Shown here in pieces: positions 964 through 59,784 of a stretch of DNA of 64,000 bases. Source of the stretch: Mobula hypostoma (lineage: Eukaryota); the NCBI RefSeq assembly GCF_963921235.1, contig NC_086097.1, positions 4,278,001 to 4,342,000 of the forward strand, given 5' to 3'. The notes below the pieces were generated by a model. That model was given only the letters and a program-made list of their open reading frames with translations. It was not told the DNA's origin and did not search any database. Every line of letters begins with the position of its first letter. Within the stretch, counting starts at the first letter, position 1. Both the position numbers and the translations under genes were made by a program.

Positions 964-1424
964 GTGAGTTTGCTTTTGTTCTCATTTGATAACTGTTAAG
1001 CACATAATATTTTCCTGCAATTTAGTTATTTTTGAAAGCAAATTTTATCACTATTTGAATACAAATAAATGACAATTTTCCAAAAGATGTTGTTGATAGT
1101 TGTATACGAACTTCACCTCTTCGTGACACCCACCCTATAAAATTAATTGGGGTGACTGCGGAAGTAAACTAAAGCAGGCATCAATCTTTTTTGAGAGTAA
1201 ATGGAATTCAAAAATTTGCAAATACAGGAAATCTGAAATAAAAGCAGAAAATACTAGAAACGTTCAACATATCAGACAGCATCCCAGCCCCTCCCACTCT
1301 GCTCTATCTCTCCTTGTCCATACTGCTTTCCACGAACACCTCCCCCCATGATATTGCAAAAAAAAAACAACTCTGCTATATCCAAACTGGTAGCATGTGT
1401 TAAACACAAGAGATTCTGCAGATA

Positions 1425-1981
1425 CGAGGAATTCTGCAGATGCTGGAAATTCAAGCAACACACATCAAAGTTGCTGGTGAATGCAGCAGACCAGGCAGCA
1501 TCTCTAGGAAGAGGTACAGTCGACGTTTCAGGCCGAGACCCTTCGTTGGGATTAACTGAAGGAAGAGCTAGTAAGAGATTTGAAAGTGGGAGAGGGAGGG
1601 GGAGATCCAAAATGATAGGAGAAGACAGGAGGGGGAGGGATGGAGCCAAGAGCTGGACAGGTGATTGGCAAAAGGGATATGAGAGGATCATGGAAGAGGA
1701 GGTCTGGGGAGAAAGGTGGGGGAGGGGGGGAACCCAGAGGATGGGCAAGGAGTATAGTCAGAGGGACAGAGGGAGAAAAAGGAGAGAGAGAGAGAGAGAA
1801 AGAATGTGTGTATATAAATAAATAACGGATGGGGTACGAGGGGGAGGTGGGGCATTAGAGGAAGTTTGAGAAGTCAATGTTCATGCCATCAGGTTGGAGG
1901 CTACCCAGACGGAATACAAGGTGTTGTTCCTCCAACCTGAGTGTGGCTTCATCTTTACAGTAAAGGAGGCCATGGATAGAC
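1425..1981 (-). mobile_element. Penelope-like element 3' fragment (GIY-YIG endonuclease C-terminus plus terminal repeat)
   Basis: ORF 1855-2073 contains LEEQHLVFRLGSLQPDGMNIDF, typical of PLE GIY-YIG ends. A degenerate hammerhead motif lies at 1518-1553. Confidence 0.85.
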
Positions 1982-2205
1982 CTGCAGATGTTGGAAATTC
2001 TGAGTAATGCACACAAGATGCTGCAGGAACTCAGCAGGTCAGCAGTACCTATGGAAATGAATAAACAGTCCAAGTTTCAGATTAAGTCCTGATGAAGGAT
2101 GTCAGCCTGAAACATTGACTGCTTATTCATTTCCATAGATGCTGCCTAATGTGTTACTCCTCCAGCATTTGTGTGTGTTGCTGTGGATTTCCAGCATCTG
2201 CAGAC
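1982..2205. mobile_element. Penelope-derived inverted-repeat short element with a central hammerhead motif
   Basis: Arms ctgcagatgttggaaat... and ...atttccagcatctgcag of about 100 bp each. CTGATGA at 2089-2095, GAAAC at 2109-2113. Confidence 0.8.
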
Positions 2206-2603
2206 TTTCGCATCATGTTTAGTACTCTTTCTGAGTAAGTGTGACCCAAGAATATAATGCTTTAATGTAATAGAAATGACTGAAGCAGTCGGGATCAAAC
2301 TTCTTACTTGAATCAATCATGTGTAAAATGGAATCTATTCCATGGTGTATTTTCCTTAGTGGAATTCCTTTTCTATTCTGCAGCTATTAATTAATATTAA
2401 GGAGATTTCAGAGTAATGAATGCACATTTAATAATGCCTTGCTTTCCGAGATGATATTATTGTTCAATGTTAAGTGATACAGACAGCAGAAGAACAAATT
2501 TACCATACTGGTTTTCCACTTTACAACTACCCACATTAATAATGAGGCCTCTGTCAGTAAGGATCGACCATGGATGTTGCTCCCCAGCTGCCTAAATACG
2601 GAA

Positions 2604-5600
2604 GCCAGGACAGTATGATGAAGAGACCAGGGGGATGGGACCAGGACAGTATGATGAAGAGACCAGGGGGATGGGACCAGGACAGTATGATGAAGAGATC
2701 GGGGGGATGGGACCAGGACAATATGATGAAGACACTAGGGGGATGGTACCAGGACAGTTTGATGAAGAGACCAGGGGATGGGACCAGGACAGTATGATAA
2801 AGAGACCAGGGGGATGGGACCAGACAGTATGATGAAGACATCAGGGGGATGGGACCAGGACAGTATGATGAAGAGACCAGGGGGATGAGACCAGGACAGT
2901 ATGATGAAGAGACCAGGGGGATGGGACCTGGACAGTATGATGAAAAGACCAGGAGGATGGGACCAGGACAGTATGATGAAGAGACCGGGGGGATGGGACC
3001 AGGACAGTATGATGAAGAGGCCAGAGGGATGGGACCAGGGCAGTATGATGAAGAGACCGGGGTGATGGGACCACAACAGTATGATGAAGAGGCCAGAGGG
3101 ATGGGACCAGGACAGTATGATGAAGAGTTCAGGGGGGATGGGATCAGGACATTACGATGAAGAGACCAGGGGGGTGGGACCAGGACAGTATGATGAAGAG
3201 ACCAGGGGGATGAGACCAGGACAGTATGATGAAAAGACCAGGAGGATGGGACCAGGACAGTATGATGAAGAGACCAGGGGGATGGGACCAGGACAGTATG
3301 ATGAAGAGACCAGGGGGATGGGACCAGGACAGTATGATGAAGAGACCAGGGGGATGAGACCAGGACAGTATGATGAAGAGTTCAGGGGGGATGGGACCAG
3401 GACAGTGTGATGAAAAGACCAGGAGAATGGGACCAGGACAGTATGATGAAGAGACCGGCGGGATGGGACCAGGACAGTATGATGAAGAGGCCAGAGGGAT
3501 GGGACCAGGACAGTATGATGAAGAGACCAGGGGGATGGGACCAGGACAGTATGATGAAGAGGCCAGAGGGATGGGACCAGGACAGGATGATGAAGAGTTC
3601 AGGGGGGATGGGATCAGGACATTACGATGAAGAGACCAGGGGGGTGGGACCAGGACAGTATGATGAAGAGACCAGGGGGATGGGACCAGGACAGTATGAT
3701 GAAGAGACCAGGGGGTTGGGACCAGGACAGTATGATGAAGAGACCAGGGGTATGAGACCAGGACAGTATGATAAAGAGACCAGGGGGATGGGACCAGGAC
3801 AGTATGATGAAAAGACCAGGAGGATGGGACGAGGACAGTATGATGAAGAGACCAGGGGGGTGGGACCAGGACAGGATGATGAAGAGTTCAGGGGGGATGG
3901 GATCAGCACATTACGATGAAGAGACCAGGGGGGTGGGACCAGGACAGGATGATGAAGAGACAAGGAGGATGGGACCAGGACAGTATGATAAAGAGACCGG
4001 GGGGATGGGACCAGGACAGTATGATGAAGAGTTCAGGGGGGATGGGACCAGGACAGTATGATGAAGAGGCCAGAGGGATGGGACCAGGACAGTATGATGA
4101 AGAGTTCAGGGGGGATGGGATCAGGACATTACGATGAAGAGACCAGGGGGGTGGGACCAGGACAGTATGATGAAGAGACCAGGGGGATGAGACCAGGACA
4201 GTATGATGAAAAGACCAGGAGGATGGGACCAGGACAGTATGATGAAGAGACCAGGGGGATGGGACCAGGACAGTATGATGAAGAGACCAGGGGGATGGGA
4301 CCAGGACAGTATGATGAAGAGACCAGGGGGATGAGACCAGGACAGTATGATGAAGAGACCGAGGGGATGGGACCAGGACAGTGTGATGAAAAGACCAGGA
4401 GGATGGGACCAGGACAGTATGATGAAGAGACTGGGGGGATGGGACCAGGACAGTATGATGAAGAGGCCAGAGGGATGGGACCAGGACAGTATGATGAAGA
4501 GACTGGGGGGATGGGACCAGGACAGTATGATGAAGAAACCAGGGGGATGAGACCAGGACAGTATGATGAAGAGACCAGGAGGATGGGACCAGGACAGTAT
4601 GATGAAAAGACCAGGAGGATGGGACCAGGACAGTATGATGAAGAGACCAGGGGGATGGGACCAGGACAGTATGATGAAGAGACCAGGGGGATGGGACCAG
4701 GACAGTATGATGAAGAGACCAGGGGGATGAGACCAGGACAGTATGATGAAGAGACCGAGGGGATGGGACCAGGACAGTGTGATGAAAAGACCAGGAGGAT
4801 GGGACCAGGACAGTATGATGAAGAGACTGGGGGGATGGGACCAGGACAGTATGATGAAGAGGCCAGAGGGATGGGACCAGGACAGTATGATGAAGAGACT
4901 GGGGGGATGGGACCAGGACAGTATGATGAAGAAACCAGGGGGATGAGACCAGGACAGTATGATGAAGAGACCAGGAGGATGGGACCAGGACAGTATGATG
5001 AAAAGACCAGGAGGATGGGACAAGGACAGTATGATGAAGAGACCAGGGGGATGGGACCAGGACAGGATGATGAAGAGTTCAGGGGGGATGGGATCAGGAC
5101 ATTACGATGAAGAGACCTGGGGGATGGGACCAGACAGTATGATGAAGAGACCAGGGGGATGGGACAAGGACAGTATGATGAAGAGACCGGGGGGATGGGA
5201 CCAGGACAGTATGATGAAGAGACCAGGGGGATGGGACCAGGACAGTATGATGAAGAGACCGGGAGGATGGGACCAGGACAGTATGATGAAGAGACCAGGG
5301 GGATGGGACCAGGACAGTATGATGAAGAGACCGGGGGGATGGGACCAGGACAGTATGATGAAGAGACCAGGGGGATGGGACCAGGTCAGTATGATGAAGA
5401 GACTGGGGAGATGGGACCAGGACAGTATGATGAAGAGACCAGGGGGATGGGACCAGGACAGTATGATGAAGAGACTGGGGGGATGGGACCAGGACAGTAT
5501 GATGAAGAGACCAGGGGGATGTGACCAGGACAGTATGATGAAGAGACAGGGGGATGGGACCAGGACAGTTTGATGAAGAAACCGGGGGGATGGGACCAGG

Positions 5601-7590
5601 GCAGTATGATGAAGAGCCCAGGAGGATGGGACCAGGACAGTATGATGAAGAGACCAGGAGGATGGGACCAGGACAGTATAATGAACAGACCAGGAGAATG
5701 GGACCAGGACAGTATGATGAAGAGGCCAGGGGGATGGGACCAGGACAGTATGATGAAAAGACCAGGAGGATGGGACAAGGACAGTATGATGAAGAGACCA
5801 GGGGGATGGGACCAGGACAGGATGATGAAGAGTTCAGGGGGGATGGGATCAGGACATTACGATGAAGAGACCAGGGGGATGGGACCAGGACAGTATGATG
5901 AAGAGACCAGGGGGATGGGACCAGACAGTATGATGAAGAGACCAGGGGGATGGGACCAGGACAGTATGATGAAGAGACCGGGGGATGGGACCAGGACAGT
6001 ATGATGAAGAGACCAGGGGGATGGGACCAGGACAGTATGATGAAGAGACTGGGAGGATGGGACCAGGACAGTATGATGAAGAGACCAGGGGGATGGGACC
6101 AGGACAGTATGATGAAGAGACCGGGGGGGATGGGACCAGGACAGTATGATGAAGAGACCAGGGGGATGGGACCAGGACAGTATGATGAAGAGACTGGGGA
6201 GATGGGACCAGGACAGTATGATGAAGAGACCAGGGGGATGGGACCAGGACAGTATGATGAAGAGACAGGGGGATGGGACCAGGACAGTATGATGAAGAGA
6301 CCAGGGGGATGGGACCAGGACAGTATGATGAAGAGACTGGGGAGATGGGACCAGGACAGTATGATGAAGAGACCAGGAGGATGGGACCAGGACAGTTTGA
6401 TGAAGAGACCGGGGGGATGGGACCAGGTCAGTATGATGAAGAGACCAGGGGGATGGGACCAGGACAGTATGATGAAGAGACCAGGAGGATGGGACCAGGA
6501 CAGTATGATGAAGAGACCAGGAGGATGGGACCAGGACAGTATAATGAACAGACCAGGAGGATGGGACCAGGACAGTATGATGAAGAGACCAGGGGAGTGG
6601 GACCAGGACAGTATGATGAAGAGACCAGGGGGATGGGACCAGGACAGTATGATGAAGAGACCAGGAGGATGGGACCAGGACAGTATGATGAAGAGACCGG
6701 GGGGATGGGACCAGGACAGTATAATGAAGAGACCGGGGGGATGGGACCAGGACAGTATGATGAAGAGTTCAGGGGGGATGGGACCAGGACAGTATGATGA
6801 AGAGACCAGGGTGATGGGACCAGGACAGTATGATGAAGATGTCAGGAGGATGAGACCAGGACAGTATGATGACGAGACCAGGGGGATGGGACCAGGACAG
6901 GATGATGAAGAGACTGGGGGGATGGGACCAGGACAGTATGATGAAGAGACCAGGGTGATGGGACCAGGACAGTATGATGAAGAGGTCAGGAGGATGAGAC
7001 CAGGACAGTATGATGACGAGACCAGGGGGATGGGACCAGGACAGGATGATGAAGAGACCGGGGGGATGGGACCAGGACAGTACGATGAAGAGACCGGGGG
7101 GGATGGGACCAGGACAGTATGATGAAGAGTTCAGGGAGGATGGGACCAGGACAGTATGATGAAGAGACCAGGGGGATGGGACCAGGACAGTATGATGAAG
7201 AGACCAGGGGGATGGGACCAGGATAGTATGATGAAGAGGTCAGGAGGATGGGACCAGGACAGTACGATGAAGAGATTAGGAGGATGGGACCAGGACAGTA
7301 TGATGAAGAGACCAGGGGGGATGGGACCAGGACAGTATGATGAAGACACCAGGGGGATGGGACCAGACAGCATGATGAAGAGACCAGGGGGGATGGGACC
7401 AGGACAGTATGATGAAGACCCGGGGGGGGATGGGACCGCACAAGATGATGAAGAGACCAGGATAGTATGATGAAGAGACCGGGGGGATGGGACCAGGACA
7501 GGATGATGAAGAGATCAGTGTGGATGGTGTTGAAGAGACCAGGGGATGGGACCAGGAGAGTAAGATGAAGAGACCAGGGGATGGGACCAT
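2604..7590. repeat. 36-bp G/purine-rich minisatellite, about 138 units, consensus GGGACCAGGACAGTATGATGAAGAGACCAGGGGGAT
   Basis: Read directly; units start at 4261 and 4297. Lies in a PPP4R4 intron. Confidence 0.98.
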
Positions 7591-10901: not shown

Positions 10902-10987
10902 GTAAGTCTGTGTGTCCAAGTTTGTTACTGTGTTCATAGAGAAACCAATTTCAATATCAAGATGATGATGCCTGTTTACTCCCTCGA

Positions 10988-11415
10988 GTAACACACACAA
11001 AATGCCAGAGGAACTCAGCAGGTTACAGGAGAGGACGAAATAGTTGACGTTTTGGGTCGAGTCCCTTCATCAGGACTGGAAAGGAAGGGGGAAGAAGCCA
11101 AAGTAAGAAGGTGGGGGTGGGGAAGGAGTCCAAGGTCGAAGCTGATAGGTGGAGCCAGGTGTGTAGGGTATGCTTTACCTATGCTGTATACTACATGCAT
11201 TTTGAACTATATCTTATTAACTTACTTATGGTAACATTTTGGTTTACGTGATGGGTGTGATGTGGGTGAAAGATGGTCTGGATGAACATTGTTTTATTTG
11301 GTTGTGTATATGTACAGTCAGATAGCAATAAACGTGAAATTAGAGAGGGATAGAGTACGATGTCGGGAGGTGACAGGTGGAACAGGTAAAGGGCTGAAGA
11401 AGATGGAATACTCTT
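10988..11415 (-). mobile_element. Penelope terminal fragment with a mutated hammerhead (11042-11077), interrupted by a LINE tail at about 11165-11340
   Basis: Minus strand AGTC-CTGATGA-AGGGACTCGACCC-AAAAC-GTC-AACT. Confidence 0.7.
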
Positions 11416-18806: not shown

Positions 18807-18983
18807 TAGTCAGAAACTGACATTTGAGCTTACTGCCACAGTGCCTACACTAGAAATATTACAAGTCTCCAATCTCTGGATGAAGAATAGATTGTAATTG
18901 CAAATGAAAATCAATAACAAATAACATACATCAAAGTTGCTGGTGAACGCAGCAGGCCAGGCAGCATCTATAGGAAGAGGCGC

Positions 18984-19019
18984 AGTCGACGTTTCAGGCC
19001 GAGACCCTTCGTCAGGACT
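18984..19019 (-). ncRNA. Minimal type-I hammerhead ribozyme motif in a Penelope terminal fragment (18920-19060)
   Basis: Minus strand reads AGTC-CTGACGA-AGGGTCTCGGCCT-GAAAC-GTC-GACT: stem I AGTC/GACT, intact core, stem II AGG/CCT, GUC cleavage triplet. Confidence 0.8.
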
Positions 19020-19099
19020 AACTGAAGGAAGAGTGAGTAAGGGATTTGAAAGCTGGAGGTGATCTGTTTGATGCCAATAGTAACTTTATTAGTTGTCCA

Positions 19100-19290
19100 A
19101 TCACAAACAAGAGAAAATTTGCAGATGCTGGAAATCTGAGCAACACACACAAAATGCTGGAGGAACTCAGCAGCCCAGGCAGCATCTAGGAAAAGAGTAT
19201 AGTTGACATTTTGGGCCAAAACCTCAACTGTACCCTTTTCCTAGATGCTGCCTGGCCTGCTGAGTTCCTCCAGCAATTTGTGTGTGCTGC
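19100..19290. mobile_element. Penelope-derived inverted-repeat short element (centre deleted)
   Basis: acacacaaaatgctggaggaactcagcag... and ...ctgctgagttcctccagcaatttgtgtgtg arms. Confidence 0.75.
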
Positions 19291-19830: not shown

Positions 19831-21477
19831 TTATCCTGAGTCCCACACCCATAATATGTAAACTTTTCAGCTTTAGGGAAATGGGTCGTAACTAAAAAAA
19901 CAGCCAGCATCAATGTGATGAATTCAACTTCAGAGTATAAAAATGACATTTGAGAAAAGATGATTTTATTTCAAGTATTAAAAAAATTGTACAACTGTTT
20001 TTGATCTTGTAAAAATGTTTGAGACTTTATGTTAATTGGGCTCGAATAAACCAATCCCATTACAACCTAAACTGAAGCCGTTCCTATTCAGAACCATTGT
20101 ATATAATTCTGATTGGCAACTATTCGTTTATATTCGTGAACTCTTTACTAGAATTTCATAGAAGTTAGAACACAGAAACAAGCTATTTCAGTTCAATCTA
20201 AGAATCCATGCTTTTTTCTCACTAATACCATCATGAAGGAGGTACAAGAGCCTCAGGACTCACCAGGCTCAGAAACAGTTATCACCCCTTATCCATCAGG
20301 CTCTTGAACCAGAGAAGATAACTTCACTGAACTTCACTTGCCCCATCATTTAACTTTTCTACCACAAACTGAACCCACCAGAAACTATGGAGTCACTTTT
20401 AAAGACTCTTCATTTCATGTTCTCAATATTTATTGCTTTCTTATTATTTGTTTTAAATATATTTTTTCAGCTCAAGCTGGTAAAACCTGAGGTATGGGTA
20501 TAGGCAAGTACACTCATTTCTCAATTGCTAGGAACTTCCAGACTATTCTAGTGGCTTTTTGAAGATTAGCATAAATATTGCTGTGTAGCCCTAATTGTTT
20601 ATTGCTATTGAGAAGTGCCTTTGGGATGATATCACTTGTGGAAATTACTATTGAGACAATGTATACCCTGTTCATGTTCCATAGTCCTTCAATTTCCTCA
20701 TTTAATTCAGCATATTTCTAGTGTTTTCACTTACTGATTTCTATATGTTATGTATGTTTGGAATAGCTATATCTACTCAATAAGTTCTTTTTGCTTATTT
20801 ATCTTGTATTATTATATATCCAGATGGGTATTATGGATTGTCCTATCTGTAATTATTATAATATTGTTATTATTATTATTTTCTTCTGTTCTTGCAAATT
20901 TATTGTCTTTTGCATATTGGTTGTTTGTCCTGTTGGGCATTGTTTTTCACTGATTTTATTGTGTTTCTTGTATTTACTGTGAATCTCCACAAGAAAATGA
21001 ATCTCAGGGTTGTTCTGTATATGGTGACATATATGTACTTTGATAATAAATTTACTTGGAACCTTGAATCTAGGCTCTCTTCTCTATAGTAATCCTTTCA
21101 CATTCTCCAATATAAACTTAATAAAACTGAATCTGTACTTAAAAGGTAGATAAAGTTAGTAGTAAGTATTAAAGAGATTGCTAAATCTGGATTATTTGGC
21201 ATTGGATGTTCCATATAACATGCTGTTTGCACAATAAATTTCTGTACTTTTATTAGAATGAAAAGGAGACAAACTTCCTTCATGCTTCTGGAAATGTATA
21301 TCAATAACTTAGAAAATCATGGTGATGTTGTGAGGCAGGATTAATCTGCCATTTTGACAAGGAAAGTTGTAAAAACAATTAGCTTGTCAATGGCAGGGTA
21401 TCTGATCATGTACTCATGATACACAAACAGAGGAACTCAATGAGTCAGTCTGCATCTGTGGACGCAATAGGATAGGC

Positions 21478-21958
21478 ATAGAATATAGAACAGTAGAGCA
21501 CAAGAACAAGGCCTTCGGTCCACAATGTTGTGCTGAACCAGATAAATTAGTAATCAAATGGCCAATTGAACCAATCCTCTCTGCCTACACAATGTCCATA
21601 TCCTTCCATTTTCTTCACATACATGTGTCTATCTAAATGTCTCTTAAAAGTCCCTACTGTGTCTGCCTCTACCACCACTCCAGGCAGCACATTCTAGACA
21701 CCTACACTCTCTGTGTAAAGAAAACTTGCCTGTCACATCTCCTTTGAAATGACCCCCTCTCACCTTAAAGGCATGCCCTCTGGTATTAGACATTTGGACT
21801 CCGGGAAAAAAAAAGATGCTGTCTGTCTACTCTGTCTGTGCCTCTCGCAGTCTTATTAACCACTATCAGTTCTCCCCTCAGCCTGTGCTGCTCCAGAGAA
21901 AACATCCCAAGCTTGTCCAATATGGGCATGCCCTCTAATCCAGGCAACATCCTGGTAG
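21478..21958 (-). mobile_element. CR1 3' fragment
   Basis: TRMLPGLEG...LGMFSLEQHRLRG on the minus strand. Confidence 0.8.
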
Positions 21959-22703
21959 ATGAGTTAGTTAACATTTTGCACAGAAATCTTACATCTTGCT
22001 CTAAAGCAGAGTCTTGGCTCAATGTGTTCACTATCACTTTGCTTTACAGATGCTGCTTGATCTTCTGTGTTCCTCCAGCAGATTGGTTTTGCCCCATATT
22101 ATAATATCTGCAATCTCTTGTGTATGTGTTCATGGTAGTTGAGTAAAACTCTGATTTCACACACTTTACAATGATGCCCAGTGCTAAGTACGGACATAGC
22201 TATCAGTGACATCATGGCAAAGGTACGGTACCTCCCATGAACCCATACACAATGAACGTGAAAGATGTGATAGTATTAGAGTCATAGAAAAGTACAGCAC
22301 AGAAACTGGCCCTTTGGTCCATCTAGTCCATGCCAAACCATTTAAGCTGCCTACACCCATCGACCTGCACCCGGGCCATAGCCATCCGTAGCTCCACCAT
22401 CCATGTATGTGTCCAAACTTCTACGTTTTCCAAATGTTCAAAGAAGGGGTGTCCTAAATATCATTTGTGCAGCAAACTTTCTGCAGCGGAGTTGTGGATC
22501 TGGAGAAGAGTAAGTAGGAAGATAATAGATTTGGATGTTTCCCTGGATCACAATTAGTCACAATTTGAGAAGGAAGCAGAAATCGCAGAACTGGGAGTGT
22601 TATCAATACTGCTGGATTAGTGTGAACCATAAAGTTCATGGGAACAGGAAAGTAGCAAATGATTTTGCATTGAAACCAGCCATGCCAAAGATCAGCTTGT
22701 AGA

Positions 22704-24224: not shown

Positions 24225-24350
24225 CTCTGATGAAGGATTTTGGCCCGTAACATCGACTGTAATTTTTTCCATAGATGTTGCCTAACCTGCTGAGTTCCTC
24301 CAGCACTTTGTGTGTGTTACTCGGATTTCCAGCATCTGCAGATTTTCTCC
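24225..24350 (+). mobile_element. Penelope-derived half element with degenerate hammerhead
   Basis: CTGATGA (24227-24233)-aggattttggccc-GTAAC-ATC-GACT followed by the same arm as 2120-2205. Confidence 0.7.
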
Positions 24351-30490: not shown

Positions 30491-31387
30491 GCACATTGGT
30501 TTAGGGTGTTCTTTTATTAATTCTATTGTATTTTTTGTATTTACTGTGATTTCCCACAAGAAAATGAATTTCAGGGATATAAATGGTCACACTTATGTAC
30601 TTTGATAATAAATTTACTTTGAATTTTAATCAGAGTTTCAACAATGCACAATTACTATTTTAACTATAAAATCAATATGAGTATTAGTGGGAGAAACTTA
30701 TTTTTCCAATATTGAGCTGGAACTCCCTACAAATATTGCAAGATAGTGTTTCTCCTCACAGAACCTATGACCCTCTTCTCAATCTCTTCAAATTTACATC
30801 AACTGCTTCTCAATTCCACCATTACTGGGAGCAATCTCTCCTGGCTCACTTCGTAAAATATCAGTTGAATCACCTCTCAGTGTTCCCAATAAATGAAGTA
30901 CAACCACAGCTTCCCCTGTCTACCGTGTAACTAAAGTCCCTCACCCCAAAGACAATCCTACCAGGTTTCTTCAAAACTTTAACTTCCCTTGGATGAGAAT
31001 TGCTTCCAGTGTTTTAGCTGTGGTCAAGCCTGTGTTTTATAGAGCTGCCATACATCAGAGTTCAAGAGGTTAATGATACTGATTCAGCACATCTTGCCTA
31101 TGTCAGGCATAAATGGGCTTTAGGTTAATCTCACCTCCTGACTCCTGGTCCCAGCCGTTACCCTACAGGTCAGATCTCTTCACTCTCATCCAGATTTATT
31201 TTCAACGGACCGGTTCAAGGGATGAGCTATGTGCCACAAAGTGGATGAGCTCCTGAGGAGTCATAGTTTGCAGGACCATGGCAAGGATGAGGTGTTGGGA
31301 GGTGGGTTATAAACAGACAATGTTGGAAGAGCTCAGCAATTCAGGCAGTATTTCAAGTTTGTTTAATTGTCATTCGACCATACTCAC

Positions 31388-42339: not shown

Positions 42340-43900
42340 AGATGAGGGTTAACTTTAAGGTTGAGTCAGTGGTGAGGAAAGCATATGCAATGTTAGCTTT
42401 CATTGCAAGACGTCTAGATTACAAGGATGTGATGCTGAGGCTTTATAAGTCATTGGTCAGATCGCACTTAGAATATTGTGAGCAGTTTTCGGCCCCTTAT
42501 CTAAGAAAGGATGTGCTGGCATTGGACAGAGTCCAGAAGAGATTCATGAGAATGATTCCAAGAATGAAAGTGATAGGGCATGTGGAGTGTTTGATGGCTC
42601 TGGGTCTGTACTTGTGCGAGTTTAGAAGAATGAGGGGGATCTTATTGAAATCTATCAAATGTTAAAAGGCCTAGATAGAGTGGATGTGGAGAGGATATAG
42701 TGGGGGAGTCTAGGACCAGAGGACATAGCCTCAGAAAAGAGGGATGTCCACTGACACAGTGATGAGAGGAATTTCTTTAGCCAGAGAGAGGTGGATCTGT
42801 GGAATTCATTGCCACAGTTGGCTGTAGAGACCAAGTCACTGGGGATATTTAAAGTGGAAGTTGACAGGTTCTCAGTTAGCCAGGACATTAGACTATAAGA
42901 CTGTAAGACATAGGAGCAGAATTAGGCCATTTGGTCCATCGAGTCTGCTCTGGCATTCAATCATGGCTGATCATTTTCCCCCTCCTCAGCTCCACTCCCC
43001 AGCCTTCTCCCTGTAACCTTTGATCTGTGTCCAGTCAAGAACCTATCAAGCTCTGCCTTAAATACACCCAATGACCCAGCCTCCACAACTGCCTGTGGTA
43101 ATAAATTCCACAAATTCACCACCCTCTGGCTAAAGAAATTTCTCCACATCTCTGTTTTAAATGGACACCCCTCTAACCTGAGGCTGTGCCCTCTTGTCCT
43201 AGAACCCTTCCCCCTTCATGGGAAACATCCTTTTCACATCTACTCTGTCTAGGCCTTTCAACATTTGAAAGGTTTCAATGAGATTCCCCTCTCATCCTTC
43301 TAAATTCCAGTGAGTACAGACCCAGAGCCATCAAACGTTCCTTGTATGATAACCCTTACATTCCCAGAATCATCCTTGTGAACCTCCTCTGAACCCTCTC
43401 CAATTTCAGCACATTTTTCTTTGATGAGGAGCCCAAAACTGTTCACAATACTCAAGGTGAGGCCTCACCAGTGCCTTATAAAGCCTCAGCATCACATCCC
43501 TGCTCTTGTATTCCAGACCTCTTGAAATGAATGCTAACATTGCATTTGCCTTCCTCACCACCAACTCAACCTGCAAGTTAACCCTTAGGGTGTTCTGCAC
43601 AAGGACTCCCAAGTCCCTCTGTGTCTCAGATTCCTGGAATCTCTCCCCATTTGGAAAATTGTCTGCACATTTATTTCTGCTACCAAAGTGCATGACCATG
43701 CATTTTCCAACATTATATTTTATTTGTCACTCTTTTGCCCACTCTCCTAATCTAAGTCCTTCTGCAGCCTATCTCTTTCCTCACCAAACATTGAAGGCTA
43801 TGGGGACAAGGCAGGAGAATGGGGTTGAAAGAGATAATTAATCGACCGTGATGTAATGGTGGAGTACAATTGGCGGGGTAATTCTGCTTCTGTGTCACAC
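42340..43900 (+). mobile_element. CR1 (+) interrupted by an antisense CR1 (42888-43783)
   Basis: Host ends ...agccaggacat and resumes cattgaaggctatgggg; the insert begins with the reverse-complemented 3' tail. Confidence 0.85.
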
Positions 43901-47385: not shown

Positions 47386-48459
47386 ATATTGCGAGTCATA
47401 ATTCTGTACTGACTTAGTTAATGTAAAACAACGTTTTGGCTGACTGCATAACACATACAAAATGCCTGAGGAAATCAGCATCTATGGAAAGGAATCAACA
47501 GTCAATGTTTTGGACTAGGACCCTTCTTCAGGACATTTTGTGTGTGTTGTTCTGGACTACCGGCATCTGCGGAATCGCTTGTATTGCTGTAAATCTTTTT
47601 GCTTTAGCTAATTGTGTCCCTTGGATAACTTGCTGAGCAAAAGAAGACGAAGGCGTGGATAGTGTGTCAGGGGAAGGAAAAGAAATAAATGCAGAGAAAG
47701 AAAACTTCCTTTACGTTCTCTATAGAAATGGATAGCATGATCGCATCGTGGTTAATGTAATGCCGTTACAGCACCAGCAATCTGCTTCAGCTGTCTGTCA
47801 GAAGCTTGTACGTCCTCCCTGTGTCCTTAAGAAAGATATCGGCCCAAAATGTTGTCTGTTTATTCATTTCCATAGATGCTGCCTGGCCTGCTGAGTTTCT
47901 CCACCATATTGTGTGTGCTGTTCTGGATTTCCAGCATCTCTTGTGTTTTTGTCTGAATGAGTTAAGTTTCTGTCTCCATATTGGTTGAAATACGTATTTC
48001 AATATGTTGATGTTTATTTAAACTGTTGGACTGAATCAAATCGTTAAAGTCATTATTTGGTTTTCGTAAAACAGTGTTATCCAAACAGGTTCAAGTATTG
48101 CACAAATAAACAGGGCAGATAATGTCCCAAGTGACAGTTTTCATTGGTTCATTGTGATACCACCTATGTTCTCTTCTGCAAGGTCATTTGTAAAACATTT
48201 GGGAGGACCTGCAAAGATAGTCTTCTCTCAGAAATGTATTTCTGGAACACTTTGGCTGTAACTTTGATTATATAGTAAATCCTAATATGGAAAATGTACA
48301 AATACAAAAATTTCTGACTGGTAATTGATTGAAATGTCTAAGACCAGAGGGCATGCATGTAAGGTGATAGGGGGTAATTCCAAGGGAGATGTGAGAGGCA
48401 AGTTTTTTTTATGTTAGAGTGATGGGTGCCTGGAAAGTGTGGGTTTGTGATAAAGATAG

Positions 48460-49872: not shown

Positions 49873-50441
49873 TTTCTATGTTACATTAGAGGCTTTCAAG
49901 AGACGATTAGGTAAGACAATAAAAACATAGGAGCAGAATTAGGTTACTCATCCCATCAAGTCTTCTTCATATGAATTTACTTTGAATTTTGAACCCAGAG
50001 GAAACCCACATGTACACAGGAAGAAGTACAAACGTTCTTACCGAGGATGTTAGATTTGAGATCTGAGCTGTAACAGCATTGTGTTGTTACACTCCGAACT
50101 GTAACAGCATTGTGCTACCTGTTACACTCCAAATTGCACAGCATTGTGCTATCTGTTACACACCGAGCTATACAGCATTGTACTAACTGTTACACTCTGA
50201 ATTGTAACAGCATTGTATTGTTACACTCCGAACTGTAACAGTATTGTGCTACCTGTTCTGCTCCGAGCTGTAATAATGTTCTGCTAACCCTTACACTCTG
50301 AGCTGTAACAATGTTGTTCCAACTGTTCCACTCCAAACAGTAACAGTGTTGTTGTTACTCTCTGAACTGTAACAGCTTTGTGCTATCTGTTACCCTCTGA
50401 ACTGTAACAGGGTTATGCTAACTATTACACTCCAAACGGTA

Positions 50442-52031
50442 ATAAGACAATAAGACCATAAGATATAGGAGCAGAGGTAGGCCATTTGGCCCATTGATTC
50501 TGCTCCACCATTCACTCATGGGCTGATCCAATTCTTCCAGTCATCCCCACTCCCCTGCCTTCTCCCCATACCCTTTGATGCCCTGGCTAATCAAGAACCT
50601 ACCTATCTCTGCCTTAAATACACCCAGTGACTTGGCCTCCACAGCTGCTTGTGGCAGCAAATTCCACAGATTTACCACCCAAAATAATTTCTCCACATCT
50701 CTGTTCTAAATGTACATCCTTCAATCTTGAAGTTGCGCCCTCTTGACCTAGACTTCTCTACCATGGGAAATAACTTCGCCATATCTAATCTGTTCAGCCC
50801 TTTTAACATTCGGGATGTTTCTATGAGATCCCCCCCCCCCCCGCCCATTCTCCTGAACTCCAGGGAATACAGCCCAAGAGCTGCCAGATGTTCCTCATAT
50901 GGTAACCCTTTCATTCCTGGAATTATTCTTGTGAATCTTCTCTGAACCCTCTCCAATGTCAGTATATTCTTTCTAAAATAAGGAACCCAAAACTGCACAC
51001 AATACTCCAAGTGTGTCTCACGGGTGCCTTATAGAGCCTCAACATCACATCCCTACTCTTATATTCTATACCTCTAGAAATGAATGCCAACATTGCATTT
51101 GCCTTCTTCACAACCGACTCAACTTTAGGGTATCTTGCACAAGGACTCCCAAGTCCCTTTGCATCTCTGTATTTTGAATTTTCTCCCCATCTGAATAATA
51201 GTCTGTCCGTTTATTTCTTCCACCAATGTGCATGACCATACACTTTCCAACATTGTATTTCATTTGCCACTTCTTTGCCCATTCCCCTAAACTATCTAAG
51301 TCTCTCTGCAGGCTCTCTGTTTCCTCAACACTACCCCCTCCTCCACCTAGCTTTGTATCATTGGTGAATTTAGCCACAAATCCGTAGTCCAAGTCATTGA
51401 CACACATCGTAAAAAGCAGCGGTCCCAACACCGACTCCTGTGGAACTCCACTGGTAACCGGCAGCCAGCCAGAATAGGATCCCTTTATTCCCACTCTCTG
51501 TTTTCTGCCAATCGGCCAATGTTCCACCCATGCCAGTAGCTCCCCTGTAATTGCATCGGATCTTATCTTGCTAAGCAGCCTCATGTGCAGCACCTTGTCA
51601 AAGGTCTTCTGAAAATCCAAGTACACCATGTCTACCCTGCTTGTAATTTCCTCAAAAAATTGCAGTAGATTAGTCAGGCAGGATTTTCCTTTCAAGAAAC
51701 CCTTCTGGCTTTGGCCTATCTTGTCAGGTGCCTCCAGGTACTCCGTAATCTCATCCCTAACAATCAATTCCAACAACTTCCCAACCAGTGATGTCAGGCT
51801 AACAGGTCTATAGTTTCCTTTCTGCTGCCTCCCACCCTTCTTAAATAGCGGAGTAACATTTGCAATTTTCCAGTCATCCGGTACAATGCCAGAATCTATC
51901 GATTCTTGAAAGATAATTGTTAGTGCCATCACAATCTCTCCGGCTACTTCCTTCAGAGCCCGAGGGTGCATTCCATCAGGTCCAGGAGATTTATCCACCC
52001 TCAGGCCATTAAGGTTCTCAGTCGTAATTTT
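50442..52031 (-). mobile_element. CR1 (TCTTATGG-tail subfamily) inserted in the 35-bp satellite
   Basis: KSPGPDGMHPR...DWKIANVTPLFKKG...NYRPVSLTS (308-aa ORF). Confidence 0.92.
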
Positions 52032-52153
52032 CACTGCACATACTTCACTTCCCTGACACTCGTGAACAGCATTCTGCTAACAGTTACGCTCCAAACTGTA
52101 ATAGCGTTGTGCTGTTACTGTCTGAGCTGTAATAGCATTATTCTAACAGTTAC

Positions 52154-52802
52154 TGTGGTTAAGAAGGCATACGGTGCATTGGCCTTCATCAATCATGGGA
52201 TTGAGTTTAAGAGCCGAGAGGTAATGTTGCAGCTATATGGGACCCTGGTCAGACCCCACTTGGAGTACTGTGCTCAGTTCTGGTCGCCTCACTACAGGAA
52301 GGATGTGGAAACCATAGAAAGGGTGCAGAGGAGATTTACAAGGATGTTGCCTGGATTGGGGAGCATGCCTTATGAAAACAGATTGAGTGAACTCAGCCTT
52401 TTCTCCTTGGAGCGATGGAGGATGAGAGGTGACATGATCGAGGTATATAAGATGATGAGAGGCATTGATCGTGTGGATAGTCAGAGGCTTTCTCCCAGGG
52501 CTGAAATGGTTGCCACAAGAGGACACAGGTTTAAGGTGCTGGGGAGTAGGTACAGAGGAGATGTCAGGGGTAAATTTTTTATGCAGATAGTGGTGAGTGC
52601 GTGGAATGGGCTGCCGGCAACGGTGGTGGAGGCGGATACGATAGGGTCTTTTAAGAGACTTTTGGATAGATACATGGAGCTTAGAAAAATAGAGGGCTAT
52701 GTGTAAGCCTAGTAAATTCTAAGGTAGGGACATGTTCAGCACAACTTTGTGGGCTGAAGGGACTGTATTGTACTGTAGGTTTTCTATGTTTCTATGTTTC
52801 TA
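52154..52802 (+). mobile_element. Young CR1 (TTTCTATG tail) inserted in the satellite
   Basis: Open frame VVKKAYGALAFIN...RLLDRYME. Confidence 0.92.
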
Positions 52803-55486
52803 TGTTACTCTCCAAACTGTAACAGCGTTGTGCTAACTGTTCCACTCTGAGCTGCAATAGTGTTCGGCCAGCTGTTAGATTCCGAACTGTAACAGCATTG
52901 TACTAACTGTTGCACTCCGATCTGTAACAGCATTGTACTAACTGTTGCACTCCGATCTGTAACAGCATTGTACTAAATGTTACTCTGTGAAATGTAACAG
53001 CATTGTGCTAACTTCTCCACTCTGAGCTGTAAGTTTTCTGCTAATTCTTACTCTCCGAACTTCAATAGTGTTCTGCTAACTGTTACACAATAAGCTGTAA
53101 CAGCATTGTGCTACCTGTTGCACTTCAATCTAGAACAGTGTTGTGATAACTGTTACTCTCTGAACTGTAACAGTATTGTGCTAACTGTACCACTCTGAGC
53201 TGTAATAGTGTTCGGCTAACTGTTACTCTCTGAACTGTAATTGCATTGTGCTAACTGTTACTCTACAAGCTGTAATAATGTTGTGCTAACTGTTACACTC
53301 TGAGCTGTAACAAGGTTGTGCTTTCTGTTACACTCTGAGCTGTAGTAGTATTCAGCTAACTGTTATACTCTGAACTGTAACAGCATTGTGCTAACTGTTA
53401 CTCTCCGATCTGTAAAGGCATTGTACTAAATGTTACTCTGCGAAATGTAACAATGTTGTGCTAAGTTTTCCTCTCTGAGCTGTAATAGTTTTCTAACTGT
53501 TACTCTCCGAACTTTAATAGTGTTGTGCTAACTGTTACACACTAAGCTGTAACAGTGTTGTGCTAACAGTTACACTCTGGTCTGTAACAGCTTTGTGCTA
53601 ACTGTAACTCTCTGAACTGTAAGAGTGTTGTGCTAACTGTTACTCTCCAAGCTGTAATAATGCTGTGCTAACCTTTACACTCTGAGCTGTAATAATGTTG
53701 TGCTATCTGTTACACTCTGAGCTGTAACAGTGTTGTTCTGTTACTCTTCAAGTGTAATAACGTTGTGCTCAATGTTACATTGTGAGTTGTAACAGCGTTG
53801 TGCTAACAGTTACTCTTCAAACTGTAATAATGTTGTCCTAACAGTCCATTCCAACCTGTAAAAGCATTGTGCTTATTGATACTCTCCGATCTGTAACAGC
53901 ATTGTGCTAACTGTTACACTTCAAGTAGTAATAAGACCATAAGACCATAAGATATAGGAGCAGAAGTAGGCTATTCGGCCCATCTAGTCTGCGAAATTTA
54001 AGTGTTGTGCGAACTGTTACTGTCCTGAGCTACAACAGTGTTGTGCTGTTACTCTCCGAGCTGTAATAATGTTGTGCTCACTGTTATACTGTGAGCTGTA
54101 ACAGTGTTGTACTGTTACAATACAAACTGTAACATTGTTGTTACACTCCTATCCTCAATGTGTTAACTGTTAGACCCCAAACTGTAACAGTGTTTTGCTA
54201 AGTGTTACTGTCTGAACTGGAACAGCATTATGCTAATTGTTTCATTCTGAACTGCAGAGGCATTGTGCTGTTACTCTCTGAGCTGTAACAACATTGTGCT
54301 AACTGTTCTCTCAGAACTGTAACAGCATTGTGCTAACAGTTAATCTATGAGCTGTAACAGTGTTGTGCTAGCTGTTCCACTCTGAGCTGTAATAGGGTTC
54401 TGTTAACTGTCACTCCCCGAGCTCTACTAGTGTTTTGCTAACTGTTCCATTCCGAGCTGTAAATGGGTTCAGTTAACTGTTACTCTCTGAACTGTGCTAT
54501 AGTTTTGCTAACTGTTACTCTCTGAGCTGTAATAACATTGTGTTAACTGTTACACTCCGAACTGTAACAACGTTGTGCTGTTACTCTCCAAGTGTAATAA
54601 CATTGTGCTAACTGTTGTTCTCCAATCTGTAACAGCATTGTGCTAACTCTTACTCTCCGAGCTGTATCAACATTGTACTAACTGTTACTCTCTGAGCTGT
54701 AATAATGTTGTGCTAACTGTTACACTCCGAGCTGTAACAGCATTGCGCTAACTGTTCCGCTCTGAACTGTAACAGTAAAGTGCTCACTGTTAGACTCTGA
54801 ACTGTAACAGTTTTGTGCTGTTACCCGCCAAGCTGTAACAGCGTTGTGCTAACAGTTCCACTCTGAGCTGTAATAGTGCTCAACCAACTGTTACTCTCCA
54901 AACTGTAACAGTAATATGTTAACTGTTACTATTAGAACTGTAAAAGCATTGTCCTAACTGCTACTCTCTGAACTGTACAGTGTTGTGCTATCTGTTCCAC
55001 ACTAAGCTGTAACAGCATTTTCTAACTGTTACACTCCAAGCTGTAACAGTATTGTGCTAACTGTTACCCTCTGAGCTGCAACATCATTGTGCTATATGTT
55101 ACTCTCCAAGTTGAAACGGCATTGTGGTTACTGTTTCACTCCGAAATGTAACAGCAATGTGTTATCTGTTACACTCTGAACTGTAACTGTTGTGCTAACT
55201 TTTATTCTCCATACTGAAACAGTATTGTGCTAACTGTTCCATTCCAGACTGTAACAGCATTGTGCTAACTGTTCCATTCCAGACTGTAACAGCATTGTGC
55301 TAACTGTTCCATTCCAGACTGTAACAGCATTGTGCTAACTGTTCCATTCCAAACTGTAACAGCATTGTGCTAACTGTTACTTTCTGAACTGTAACAGTGT
55401 TGTTCCAACTGTTACATTTGAGCTGTAATAGCATTCTGCTAACGGTTACTCACTGAATTGTGACAGCACTGTGCTGACTGTCCCAC

Positions 55487-55972
55487 TGTCAGGGCGCTGG
55501 AGCAGAGATCCGACTGCAGACCCAGTACTGTGAGATTAATTGAGTAACAAATCCCGAGGTGCAATCAAAGTTCACGTCAAAGCTCAGGCAGAAATCAAAA
55601 CATCCAGAGAAACCCAAAAACCAGAATTGGGAAAGAGGCAGAGTCGATATTCAGATGGACAGAGTTCAGATACAAATGCCGGAAAAGCTCAGGAAAACTC
55701 ACTGGCACAATCTGGCAGCAAACAGGTGAAAACACAGGACTGAAATACACTGAGCGATAAACAGAGAGGCAGATGATAGGTGGAGCACAATGAGACACAG
55801 GTGGCAGAAATACAGGTAATAATGGGAAACAGGTGAGAGACAGAGTACTCAGTAATACAGGGGCCGAAGTAGAGCAGGAGCGGGGACAGGAGCACATGGC
55901 AATACAAAACTATAGACTGACAGCTAGGGGGAAAACACACACTAAGACAGAGTTCAGCTGGAGGTACTGACA
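55487..55972 (-). repeat. 3' LTR (486 bp) of the Gypsy element
   Basis: TGTCAG...CTGACA inverted termini. A purine-rich tract (GGCGGGGCGGGAGGG on the minus strand) lies immediately upstream at about 55976-55991. Confidence 0.88.
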
Positions 55973-58578
55973 GTACCCTCCCCGCCCCGCCTCTACGGAC
56001 ACCTCCTGGCATCATGGCAGGTAGAGCTGAGTGATGGTAATGAAAGTCCCTGATGAGAGAGGGGTCCAGAATGTTACCGGCGGGGACCCAGCACCTCTCC
56101 TCAGGACCGTAGCCCTCCCCGTCCACAAGGTACTGGAGGCCACAGCCCCAGTGACAAACGTCCAGCAGTTGGCGCACCGTGAAGGCCTCTGACCCATTGA
56201 TGAGCTGTGGAGGAGGGAGGTTTTGGGGACAGGACACAGGGGGTGGCTCATGAAAGGCTTGACGCGTGACACATGGAAGGTGGGATGAATGCGGCGGAGA
56301 GTGGGGGGAGCTTGAGATGGACAACAGCAGGGCTGATGACTTTAGCAATGGGAAAGAGGCCGATGAAGCGAGGGGTGAGCTTGCAGGAATTCACCTTGAG
56401 GGGCAGGTCTCAGGTGAAAGCCACACATGCTGTCCCTGGTGGTAACGTGGGGCCTTGGAGTGATGGCAGCCAGCTTGACACTTGATCCTAGCAGAGACAC
56501 AGAGAAGGGCAGAGTGAGTGCGCCTCCACGTCTGCTGACAATGCCTCGGCAGATGGAACGCCAACCTCCTCCTCCTGGGCAGGAAACAGTGGAGGTTGGT
56601 AGCCAAGGCGGCACTTGAAAGGGGACAGACCGGTGGATGAGGACAGATGAGAGTTGATGGCGTATTCGGCCCAGGGTAGCTGCTGACTCCACGTGGAGGG
56701 GTTCTGGGAGACCAGACACTGCAATACTGTCTCTAGCTGTTGGTTGGCCCGCTTGGTCTGGCTGTTGGTCTGTGGGTGGAATCCTGGAGACTGACTCACA
56801 GAGGCACCCAGAAGATTACAGAATGCCCTCCAGAAGTTGGATGTGAATTGACAGTCCCTGTCTGACACAACGTCTACAGGTAAACCATGTAATTTAAAAA
56901 CATGTAGTACTAGTAATTTGGCTGTTTCTTTGGCCAAGGGGAGTTTAGGTAAAGGAATGAAGTGTACAGACTTGGAGAAACGATCAACTACTGTGAGAAT
57001 GGTGGTGTTACCTTCTGATGGGGGAAGACCGGTGACAAAATCCAGGGCAATGTGGGATCAGGGTCTCTTGGGGATAGACAGACCAGCAGGTGACCGGTTA
57101 GAGTTCTTGCCTTGAGCACAGACCGAACAGGCTGAGACAAAGTTGAGGATGTCATCTCCCATGGAGGGCCACCAGAACCGCCAACTGATGAAGGCCTGAG
57201 TAGACTTGGTTCCAGGGTGACAGGATAACCGGGAAGAATGACCCCACTGCAATACCTGTGGGCGGACAGAGCTGGGAACATAAACACGGTTAGTGGGGCA
57301 TTGACTAGGGGCTGCCCCGCTCTGTCGAGCAGCTTGCACAATGAATTCAATGTCCCATTGCGCTGCACCCAGGAGACAGTGAGCAGGGAAGATGATATTG
57401 CATACCTCAGGGGTCTCAGAGGCAGGAAATCTTCGGGAGAGGGCATCAGGTTTTCCATTCTTGGAAATGGGGTGAAGGACAGAGTAAAATTGCATTTGAA
57501 AAAAACAGGGACCAACGAGCTTGACGGGAGTTGAGATGCTTGGCTGTATGGATATCTTCCGGATTCTTGTGATCAGTCCGGACTAAGAATGGCACCTTTG
57601 CTCCCTCCAGCCAATGCATCCACTCCTCCAGAGCGAGCTTCACAGCCAGCAGCTCCCGGTTTCCGACATCGTAATTCCACTCCGTGAGAGGAGGCGGTGA
57701 AAGAAGAAGGCGCAGGGGTGTACCTTCTCATCCTTGGCCGAGTGCTGAGAGAGAACAGCTCCTACACCAATGTCAGACGCATTCACCTTCACTATGAACT
57801 GCCTGTCAGTGTCAGGTTGAATCAGGATGGGGGCAGAGGTGAACCGTTCCTTCAGGTCAGAGAATGCTTTTTCAGCAGCAGGGGACCAGGAGAATCTGAC
57901 AGCAGATGAGGTAAGAGCAGCCAGTGTACTGTAATTTCTGATGAAGCGGCAACAGAAATTAGCAAAGCCCAAGAAGCGTGGCAACTCCCGACGAGTCGAA
58001 GGGTGGGGCCATTCGACCACTGTCTTGACCTTCTGTTGGTCCATCTGAATGGAACCGCCTGAAATTACATACCCCAGGAAGGAGATGTTATGGTGATGAA
58101 ACTCACATTTCTCAGCCTTCACAAAGAGCTGGTTCTCCAGAAAGTACGAATGTGACCTGTCTGTTCAGCAAGGGACTTAAATAAAATCAAAATGTCGTTG
58201 AGATACACAAAAACAAATTGCTTCAGCATGTCCCTGAGAACGTCATTTACCAGGGCTTGGAAGATGGCGAGTGCATTGGTGAGAGCAAATGGCATGACCA
58301 GATACTCGTAATGGCCTGAGGTGTGTTGAAGGCCGTCTTCCACTCGTCCCTTTCGCGGATGCGGACAGATGGTAGGCGTTATGGAGATCAAGCTTGGTGA
58401 AAACTGAGGCTCCTTGTAGTAGTTCAAATGCCGAGGTCATGAGTGGAAGAGGGTAATGGTTCTTAACAGTGACTTCATTCAATCCTCGGTACTCAATGCG
58501 TGGACAAAGGAAAAACTGGCACCAGCAGGGGAGGAAGACGGCCGGATGATGCCTGCAGTCAGACACTCTTGGATGTAC
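55487..58578 (-). mobile_element. Gypsy/chromovirus (Sushi-like) LTR retrotransposon, 5'-truncated, frameshifted pol (RT-RNaseH-integrase-chromodomain)
   Basis: [39 protein letters not shown] integrase zinc finger, [16 protein letters not shown], chromodomain [17 protein letters not shown]. Confidence 0.93.
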
Positions 58579-59784
58579 AGTGTTACTCTGTGAACTCTAA
58601 CTGTTACTTTCCGAACTCTAACAGCATTGTGCTAACTGTTCCAGTCCGAAGTGAAACAGTGTTGTGCTAACATTCCATTCCGAACTGTAACAGCATTGTG
58701 CTAACTGTTACTCTCTGAACTGCAAAAATGTTATAACTGTTACTCTCTGAACTGTAACAGCAATGTTTTAACTGTTACACTCCAAACTGTTGCGGTGTTC
58801 TGCTAACTGTTACTCTCCAAGCTGTAACAGCATTGTGCTAATTGTTAGTCTCAGAGCTGCAACAGTGTTGAGCTATCTGTAACTCTCCGAACTGTAACAG
58901 AATTCTGTTAATTGTTGCTCTCTGAAATGTAACAGTGATGTGCTAACTGCTACTCTCCAAACTGTACCAGCATTCAGCTAACTGTTCCACTCTGAGCTGT
59001 GATAGTGTTTGGCTAACTTTTACTCTTCAAACTGCAACAGCTGTTGTGCTGTTACTCTCTGAACTGTAACAGCGTTTTGCTAACTATTACTATCTGAGTT
59101 GTAACAGCATTGTGGTAACTATTCCTCTCGGAACTGTATCAGCAATGTGTTAACTGTTACACTCCAAACTGTAAAGGCGTTGTGCTAACTATTACTCTCT
59201 GAACTGTAACAGCATTGCGTGAACTGTTACTCTCTGAACTGTAAAAACATTGTGATAACTGTTATTTACCAAAATTATGTTGTGCTAACTGTTCCGTACT
59301 AAGCTGTAACAGGTTTTTTCTGTTACAGTCCGAGCTATAACAGCATTCTACTAACTGTTACTCTCTGAACTGTAACAGTGTTGTGCTAACTTTTACTCTC
59401 CAAACTGTTACTGCATTGTGCTATCTGTTACTCTCCGAACTGTAACAGTGTTGTGCCAACCTGTAACAGTGTTGTACCAACTAGTCCATTCCGAACTGTA
59501 AAGGCATTGTGCTGTTACTCTTCGAACTGTAACAGCGTTGTACGAACTGTTCCCTCCAATCTTTAAAAGTGTTGTGATACCTGTTACTCACCGAGCTGTA
59601 ACTGCATTGTGCTGACTGTTACTCTCCGAGCTGTAATAGTGTTGTGCTAACTGTTCCTTTCTGAACTGTAACGGCATTGTGCCAACTGTTCCAGTCTGAA
59701 CTGTAACGGTGTTGTGCTAAATGTTCTATTCGGAACTGTAACAGTGTTGTTCTAACTGTTAGTCTCCCAGCTGTAACAGCATTG

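Follow-up and report, generated by a model that had tools for sequence, protein, structure and literature searches.

Results

The feature described here is a palindrome at positions 1982 to 2205 of the window, by which we mean the whole 64-kb stretch of Mobula hypostoma DNA that was analyzed. The window is noncoding-rich vertebrate DNA in which LINE fragments and tandem arrays accompany a minus-strand serpin gene. Positions within the Penelope end repeat, such as -10 or +98, are counted from the predicted hammerhead cut, with the younger nested copy at 1424-1981 as the reference.

An inverted-repeat search of the window returned arms at 1982-2080 and 2107-2203 separated by a 26-nt spacer, with Watson-Crick pairs at 78 of the 94 aligned arm positions, and the predicted fold of the hairpin reached -122 kcal/mol (z score of -15.7), a value that none of 200 shuffled sequences matched. 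The search, the pairing, and the shuffle test thus confirmed that the palindrome of two inverted Penelope end arms, first noticed from sequence alone, is real. The inverted arm (1982-2080, minus strand) is an end repeat that runs from +88 back to -10 and is devoid of the 5' half of the hammerhead, and the sense arm (2081-2213, plus strand) is an end repeat that runs from about -36 to +98. At the junction lies a 5-nt word (2076-2080) that the younger end repeat contains twice in opposite orientations, at -39 and at -10, and that is a candidate microhomology. The outer end (tail) of the left arm has been displaced to 1406-1423 (minus strand) by the nested insertion, and since the hammerhead motif at 1518-1553 is part of that nested copy, the true span of the palindromic element is about 1406-1423 plus 1982-2213. 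A degenerate target-site duplication of about 12 bp appears to flank this old two-armed insertion, with a putative left copy at 1394-1405 and a putative right copy at 2214-2225, next to the restored ends at 1406 and 2213, respectively. The two copies match at 10 positions, which was equaled by 0.2% of 5000 random 12-mers, a figure that is optimistic because the length and the ends were picked by the analyst.

The arms of the element are 79% identical to each other and 81 and 79% identical, respectively, to the solo copy at 24227, and G-U pairs in the hairpin are not enriched over A-C mismatches (6 versus 3; P = 0.25). With arms no closer to one another than to a solo copy and no excess of G-U pairs, the hairpin shows no sign of selection. 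An Rfam scan of the window found no family at gathering score; eight matches lay below the threshold, including hairpin microRNA models and no hammerhead models. A tandem array of about 135 copies of a 36-bp unit (2605-7461; 90% matches) begins 400 bp from the palindrome.

The insertion that splits the left arm is a younger, 5'-truncated copy of the Penelope/Poseidon type, 558 bp long (1424-1981, minus strand) and bounded by an exact 8-bp duplication (1416-1423 and 1982-1989). Within it, 1861-1980 (minus strand) corresponds to the final 40 codons of a GIY-YIG endonuclease domain and matches, at 93% identity, the end of P0001, a ray protein that has a YIDD reverse transcriptase motif and a weak GIY-YIG match (E value of 4.6e-4, under the Pfam cutoff). 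The GIY-YIG match was weak and under the cutoff in three of four homologues, a Pfam search of the 44-residue remnant itself gave no match, and a PDB search with P0001 returned nothing useful. A reverse transcriptase followed by GIY-YIG is the domain order of Penelope/Poseidon elements (PMC11167929). The Penelope GIY-YIG end is also contained in three ray gene models, P0002, P0007, and P0008, named VKORC1L1, neuromedin-U receptor 1, and ABHD14A, where it is either exonized or misannotated. The hammerhead motif of the nested copy (1518-1553, minus strand) has a mutated CUGANGA box; this site had been listed as a further copy of the palindrome family, and while it does hold family sequence, it is the ribozyme motif of a distinct Penelope copy of 558 bp.

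The hammerhead letters at 2085-2120 (plus strand) read exactly as first described, and they form a minimal type I motif with intact core boxes, all four of four stem I pairs, and a stem II that agrees with the motif. Its stem III word, ACAU, is not palindromic, and its triplet is AUU, a change that is consistent with CpG decay. Minimal PLE hammerheads need a palindromic stem III word for dimerization (PMC4209133); the palindromic positions 15.2 to 16.2 are absent at 2085-2120 and, among the 12 arms checked, are kept only at 18984-19019. A full core was present in 2 of these 12 arms, and the bare core pattern was not enriched in the window (11 matches versus 6.4 expected, with 11 reached in 7 of 100 shuffles). 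In the predicted fold, the inverted arm at 1982-2080 pairs with the GAAA box, the cut site, and the 3' strand of stem I, and forcing the hammerhead fold cost 20.3 kcal/mol in the hairpin versus 4.0 kcal/mol in the right arm alone. The fold-back is thus predicted to block the ribozyme, whose central position is best seen as incidental.

Eight sites had been proposed as whole or half copies of a single family. All eight hold family sequence, but only four are two-armed, with single arms at 1518, 11042, 24227, and 47825, and a ninth copy at 18918-19058 was absent from that list, giving nine sites with five single arms and four two-armed insertions. Besides the nested copy, the single arms comprise an arm with element body at 10984-11172 (minus strand; at least -121 to about +70); a young arm at 18918-19058 (minus strand; -71 to about +68), which has the only fully canonical hammerhead of the 12 arms tested; an arm at 24227-24350 (plus strand; about -29 to +96), located in the serpin gene's last intron; and an arm at 47822-47946 (plus strand; from about -32) with a decayed core and an internal deletion near the tail. 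The serpin exons (PF00079, minus strand) lie at 38110-37343, 32586-32266, and about 23800-23620.

The second two-armed insertion (19107-19290) has a left arm to +98 and a right arm to +67, a one-sided tail. Its turn lies inside stem II, at a self-complementary 4-mer at -13, with a gap of 1 nt between the arms, no CUGANGA box, and a fold z score of -18.7. This hairpin is located about 4.3 kb past the stop codon of the serpin gene, and read-through transcripts that cover it would fold into long double strands. An older two-armed insertion (21422-22129), read by eye, has an inverted arm to about -27 and a sense arm from about -34, and its left arm is split by a LINE-like piece of about 480 bp. 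The fourth (47446-47582) is asymmetric, with an inverted arm from +67 to -32, a sense arm from about +48 to +98, and a z score of -2.5. Among the four two-armed insertions, 21422-22129 is flanked by a duplication of 8 bp with one mismatch and the 1982-2205 element by the putative, degenerate duplication of about 12 bp; no clean duplication surrounds 19107-19290 or 47446-47582. The proposed family of palindromes of about 220 bp with a central hammerhead was not borne out, as a complete core sits in the center only at 1982-2205 among the four two-armed sites.

A profile built from the 13 arms gave 17 matches in the window at E values up to 1, including all 13 training arms; the remainder were a continuation at 21940-21995, two faint fragments, and one match at noise level, and the reversed window, used as a control, gave one match (E value of 0.85). 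Faint older end-repeat fragments lie on the minus strand at 1212-1283 (E value of 0.039) and 31313-31352 (E value of 1.6e-4). A tandem array of the end repeat was not found in the window. Pattern scans for outside copies returned none in viral contigs, 9 loci in metagenomes, and 4 in prokaryote genomes, and all 13 loci were dropped as chance because the match extended little past the 21-nt seed (11 to 14 bits). Chance adjacency of independent arms was also considered and rejected, with 0.018 cases expected versus 4 seen, under a null that is weakened by the apparent preference of the family for its own tail.

Other repeats in the window include a large LINE-like inverted pair (42345-43585), whose arms are 74 to 86% complementary and lie about 165 nt apart at the center; several decayed arrays of a 35-bp unit (50068-64000); and decayed minus-strand frames at 55600-58600 that by eye resemble those of a Gypsy-type LTR retrotransposon (reverse transcriptase, RNase H, integrase, and chromodomain).

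The fold-back junctions of the two-armed insertions, given as the end of the inverted arm and the start of the sense arm, are at -10 and about -36 in the 1982-2205 element, at -13 and -13 in 19107-19290, at -32 and about +48 in 47446-47582, and at about -27 and -34 in 21422-22129, where the sequence is decayed and the positions were read by eye. Thus, no junction is shared among the four two-armed insertions of the window, which is the outcome that the sequence-only reading had itself named as speaking against it. On the 5' side, 9 of the 13 arms stop between -40 and -10, which suggests that the template's 5' end, or a pause, may lie in this interval. The younger end repeat carries eight inverted or palindromic words of at least 4 nt between -45 and +10. 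Two junctions fall on such words, that of 19107-19290 on the 4-mer at -13 and that of the 1982-2205 element on the 5-nt inverted pair at -39/-10. The latter placement presupposes a source with younger-type upstream sequence, and its match carries two extra bases.

Two positions, separated by about 30 nt, account for the outer ends. The 3' ends of all 13 arms lie at about +62 to +71 or at +96 to +106, the oldest two read by eye, and in three of the four two-armed insertions, just one of the arms extends to the longer end. PLE insertions carry an optional tail of 30 to 40 bp that is often one-sided (PMC3846280, PMC8557442), and in vitro, the tail lies between two reverse transcription start sites, with the protein cutting and extending both target strands (PMC11167929). 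The arm ends at about +67 and +98 match this Penelope tail signature of two reverse transcription starts.

In a quartet test of the two best hairpins, 12 of the 79 shared columns grouped the arms by insertion and none supported either of the other two groupings; the number of independent events is smaller than 12, since CpG sites and a single gap of 3 nt are among these columns. Had both hairpins descended from a master hairpin, left arms would resemble left arms; instead, the arms group by insertion. From this comparison, the two best-preserved hairpins appear to share no master, and the arms within each insertion would come from one subfamily that differs between insertions, although arm-to-arm conversion, or several masters, could also give such a grouping. 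A tree of 11 of the 13 arms (two short ones were excluded) left seven of eight inner branches open.

Contigs from four DNA runs of four organisms were aligned to positions 1300 to 2400 at 80% likeness, and 77,345 to 214,669 contigs per run fell on this 1.1-kb stretch, a figure that is not a copy number. None spans the whole stretch, and the flanking contigs end at the repeat. In one run (X2), 240 contigs run past 1981 into more element sequence, and in all four runs, 625 to 934 contigs diverge from the stretch immediately ahead of 2085. Their consensus, which has low agreement (0.43 to 0.46), resembles the ordinary element body seen at 11078. Among the best 15 of 1055 joints, each is represented by at most 14 contigs, and those from 1423 to 2010 or 2018 are the best supported in all four runs, as expected if, in other copies, the arm naturally terminates with the stub at 1406-1423. 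The joint from 2204 to 1424, which connects the old tail end to the young tail end, was seen in three of four runs (3, 5, 0, and 2 contigs), and together with the nested insertion into the older tail, it hints at a targeting of the family's own tail by young copies. A head-to-head joint from 1544 to 2085 (4, 3, 3, and 2 contigs) would fit a third inverted word, at -41/-23, but position 1544 is possibly an alignment clip beside private mismatches, and this joint was not counted as a junction.

Collinear crossings of the junction are not counted in the joint tables. At least two contigs, from two other species (runs X13 and X18), run collinearly through the 1982-2205 junction; they look paralogous, as their identity of about 82% is below the roughly 92% of flank contigs from the same runs. 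Reuse of one inverted word or a small family would give the same junction geometry.

Discussion

Our data support, with a probability that we put at roughly 75%, a reading in which the hairpins arose independently, one per insertion event, each as the shortest version of a known kind of PLE insertion that carries an inverted, 5'-truncated copy. The source of the arms is the end repeat of an element encoding a reverse transcriptase and a GIY-YIG endonuclease, the arms stand head to head with variable 5' truncation, and a tail is optional. The sequence-only reading was right in regarding the elements as Penelope derived and made by Penelope machinery, rather than as MITEs, given arms that are end repeats continuous with a GIY-YIG-coding body. 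Its proposal of one nonautonomous hairpin-RNA family copied as a unit is not supported, in view of the four differing junctions, the 12:0:0 quartet, the placement of both ends at reverse transcription starts, and the predicted block of the ribozyme fold. Under double priming and self-priming alike, the hairpin is a product of insertion and not a replicating unit. This reading is based on four two-armed cases in one window and on double priming known in vitro, and the two contigs in which the 1982-2205 geometry recurs count against it.

We propose the following model for the origin of these hairpins. A PLE protein would nick both target strands in a staggered manner, and each target 3' end would prime reverse transcription on end-repeat RNA, starting at +67 or +98. 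Both cDNAs would end prematurely, close to the hammerhead and the 5' edge of the end repeat, and short inverted words supplied by the hammerhead region would be the sites at which they are joined head to head. The hammerhead near the axis would then be a by-product, switched off by the fold-back. The copy at 1982-2205 would have decayed neutrally and would later have been struck by a younger PLE.

The strongest competitor retains independent PLE by-products and differs in the priming step: a cDNA or an antisense template would fold back at a short palindrome and prime itself, and the endonuclease would resolve the hairpin, leaving a one-sided tail. This has been proposed for head-to-head PLE junctions with palindromes (PMC3846280), and it agrees with 19107-19290, where the turn is a self-complementary 4-mer and the arms are 1 nt apart, as well as with the derived states common to both arms of an insertion. 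At 47446-47582, however, the tail is on the would-be snap-back arm while the template arm begins at +67. Since the arm that reaches furthest 5' starts at +67 and the other reaches +98, this one diverged case favors two primings, and judging from it, a simple cDNA snap-back could not give such an arrangement. The cutting and extension of both target strands in vitro (PMC11167929) likewise argue against self-priming, which we regard as an unlikely second to independent insertion by double priming.

We consider improbable the view, suggested from the sequence, of a nonautonomous family in which PLE proteins make full copies of hairpin RNAs that are transcribed from one or more palindromic master elements. 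In a rotifer, end repeats alone suffice for mobilization in trans (PMC3846280), the 5' stops of 9 of 13 arms cluster, and the same junction geometry appears in two contigs of other species, yet this recurrence is also expected from the reuse of one inverted word. The differing junctions, the grouping of arms by insertion, the outer ends at reverse transcription starts, the predicted block of the ribozyme, and the lack of G-U enrichment all speak against such masters. A narrower version, equally doubtful in our view, would make the 1982-2205 junction type a true master beside many one-off hairpins, a hammerhead-silencing hairpin RNA recopied whole and common to several ray species, with the X13 and X18 contigs as members. 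Mobilization of a DNA transposon derivative by a transposase is hardly credible despite a MITE-like size, long inverted arms, and flanking duplications, as the arms consist of PLE end repeat that runs on into a body coding for GIY-YIG, five single-arm copies occur in the window, the 30-nt tail leaves the ends asymmetric where a MITE would have symmetric terminal inverted repeats, and the duplications vary in sequence and length (8, 8, and about 12 bp) instead of being fixed.

A new class of element thus most likely does not hold up, and the hairpins follow a known insertion pattern. In the papers searched, we found no description of such stubs in rays or of a palindromic nonautonomous PLE family. 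The origin of inverted PLE ends is described as unresolved in the part of PMC8557442 that we cite. Rays carry a very large end-repeat family, and a census of stubs could decide between double priming and self-priming. For repeat annotators, such stubs mimic MITEs and microRNA hairpins.

The closest known counterparts of the hairpins, as far as the cited portions of these sources extend, are the endonuclease-positive PLE insertions with an inverted copy (PMC3846280, PMC8557442), which likewise show head-to-head end repeats, a tail of about 30 nt on one arm, duplications of 8 to 12 bp around the whole unit (here at two of the four hairpins, one of them putative), a palindromic word or overlap at the junction, and nesting of PLE within PLE. 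Unlike those insertions, the hairpins described here have arms of only 50 to 135 nt, have no open reading frame between them, and are frequent (4 in 64 kb). The Poseidon PLE of Anolis studied in vitro is similar in having two reverse transcription starts that bracket the tail, both strands cut and extended, and a hammerhead upstream of these starts; joining at inverted words goes beyond the cited part of that account and is our own suggestion (PMC11167929).

The minimal type I hammerheads of metazoan PLEs share the short stem I and the conserved core, and the palindromic positions 15.2 to 16.2 that they carry are present at 18984-19019 (PMC4209133). The same source already noted opposite-strand hammerhead pairs at distances of 100 to 700 bp, as well as many motifs that stand alone and stem from truncated PLEs. 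The motif at 2085-2120 differs from the hammerheads it describes in having no palindromic word and in being paired with its own antisense arm. Finally, the non-LTR retrozymes, in the portion of the preprint on which we draw (bioRxiv 10.64898/2026.07.22.740005), are also PLE derived, noncoding, and equipped with a type I hammerhead, and they occur in a cartilaginous fish. By definition, their units are repeated directly and in tandem, and consecutive units contain a complete hammerhead, whereas the stubs described here are inverted, dispersed, and mostly coreless. The distinction between a fold-back layout and direct-repeat retrozymes, drawn at first sight of the sequence, therefore stands, given the full core in 2 of 12 arms and the lack of a tandem array in the window.
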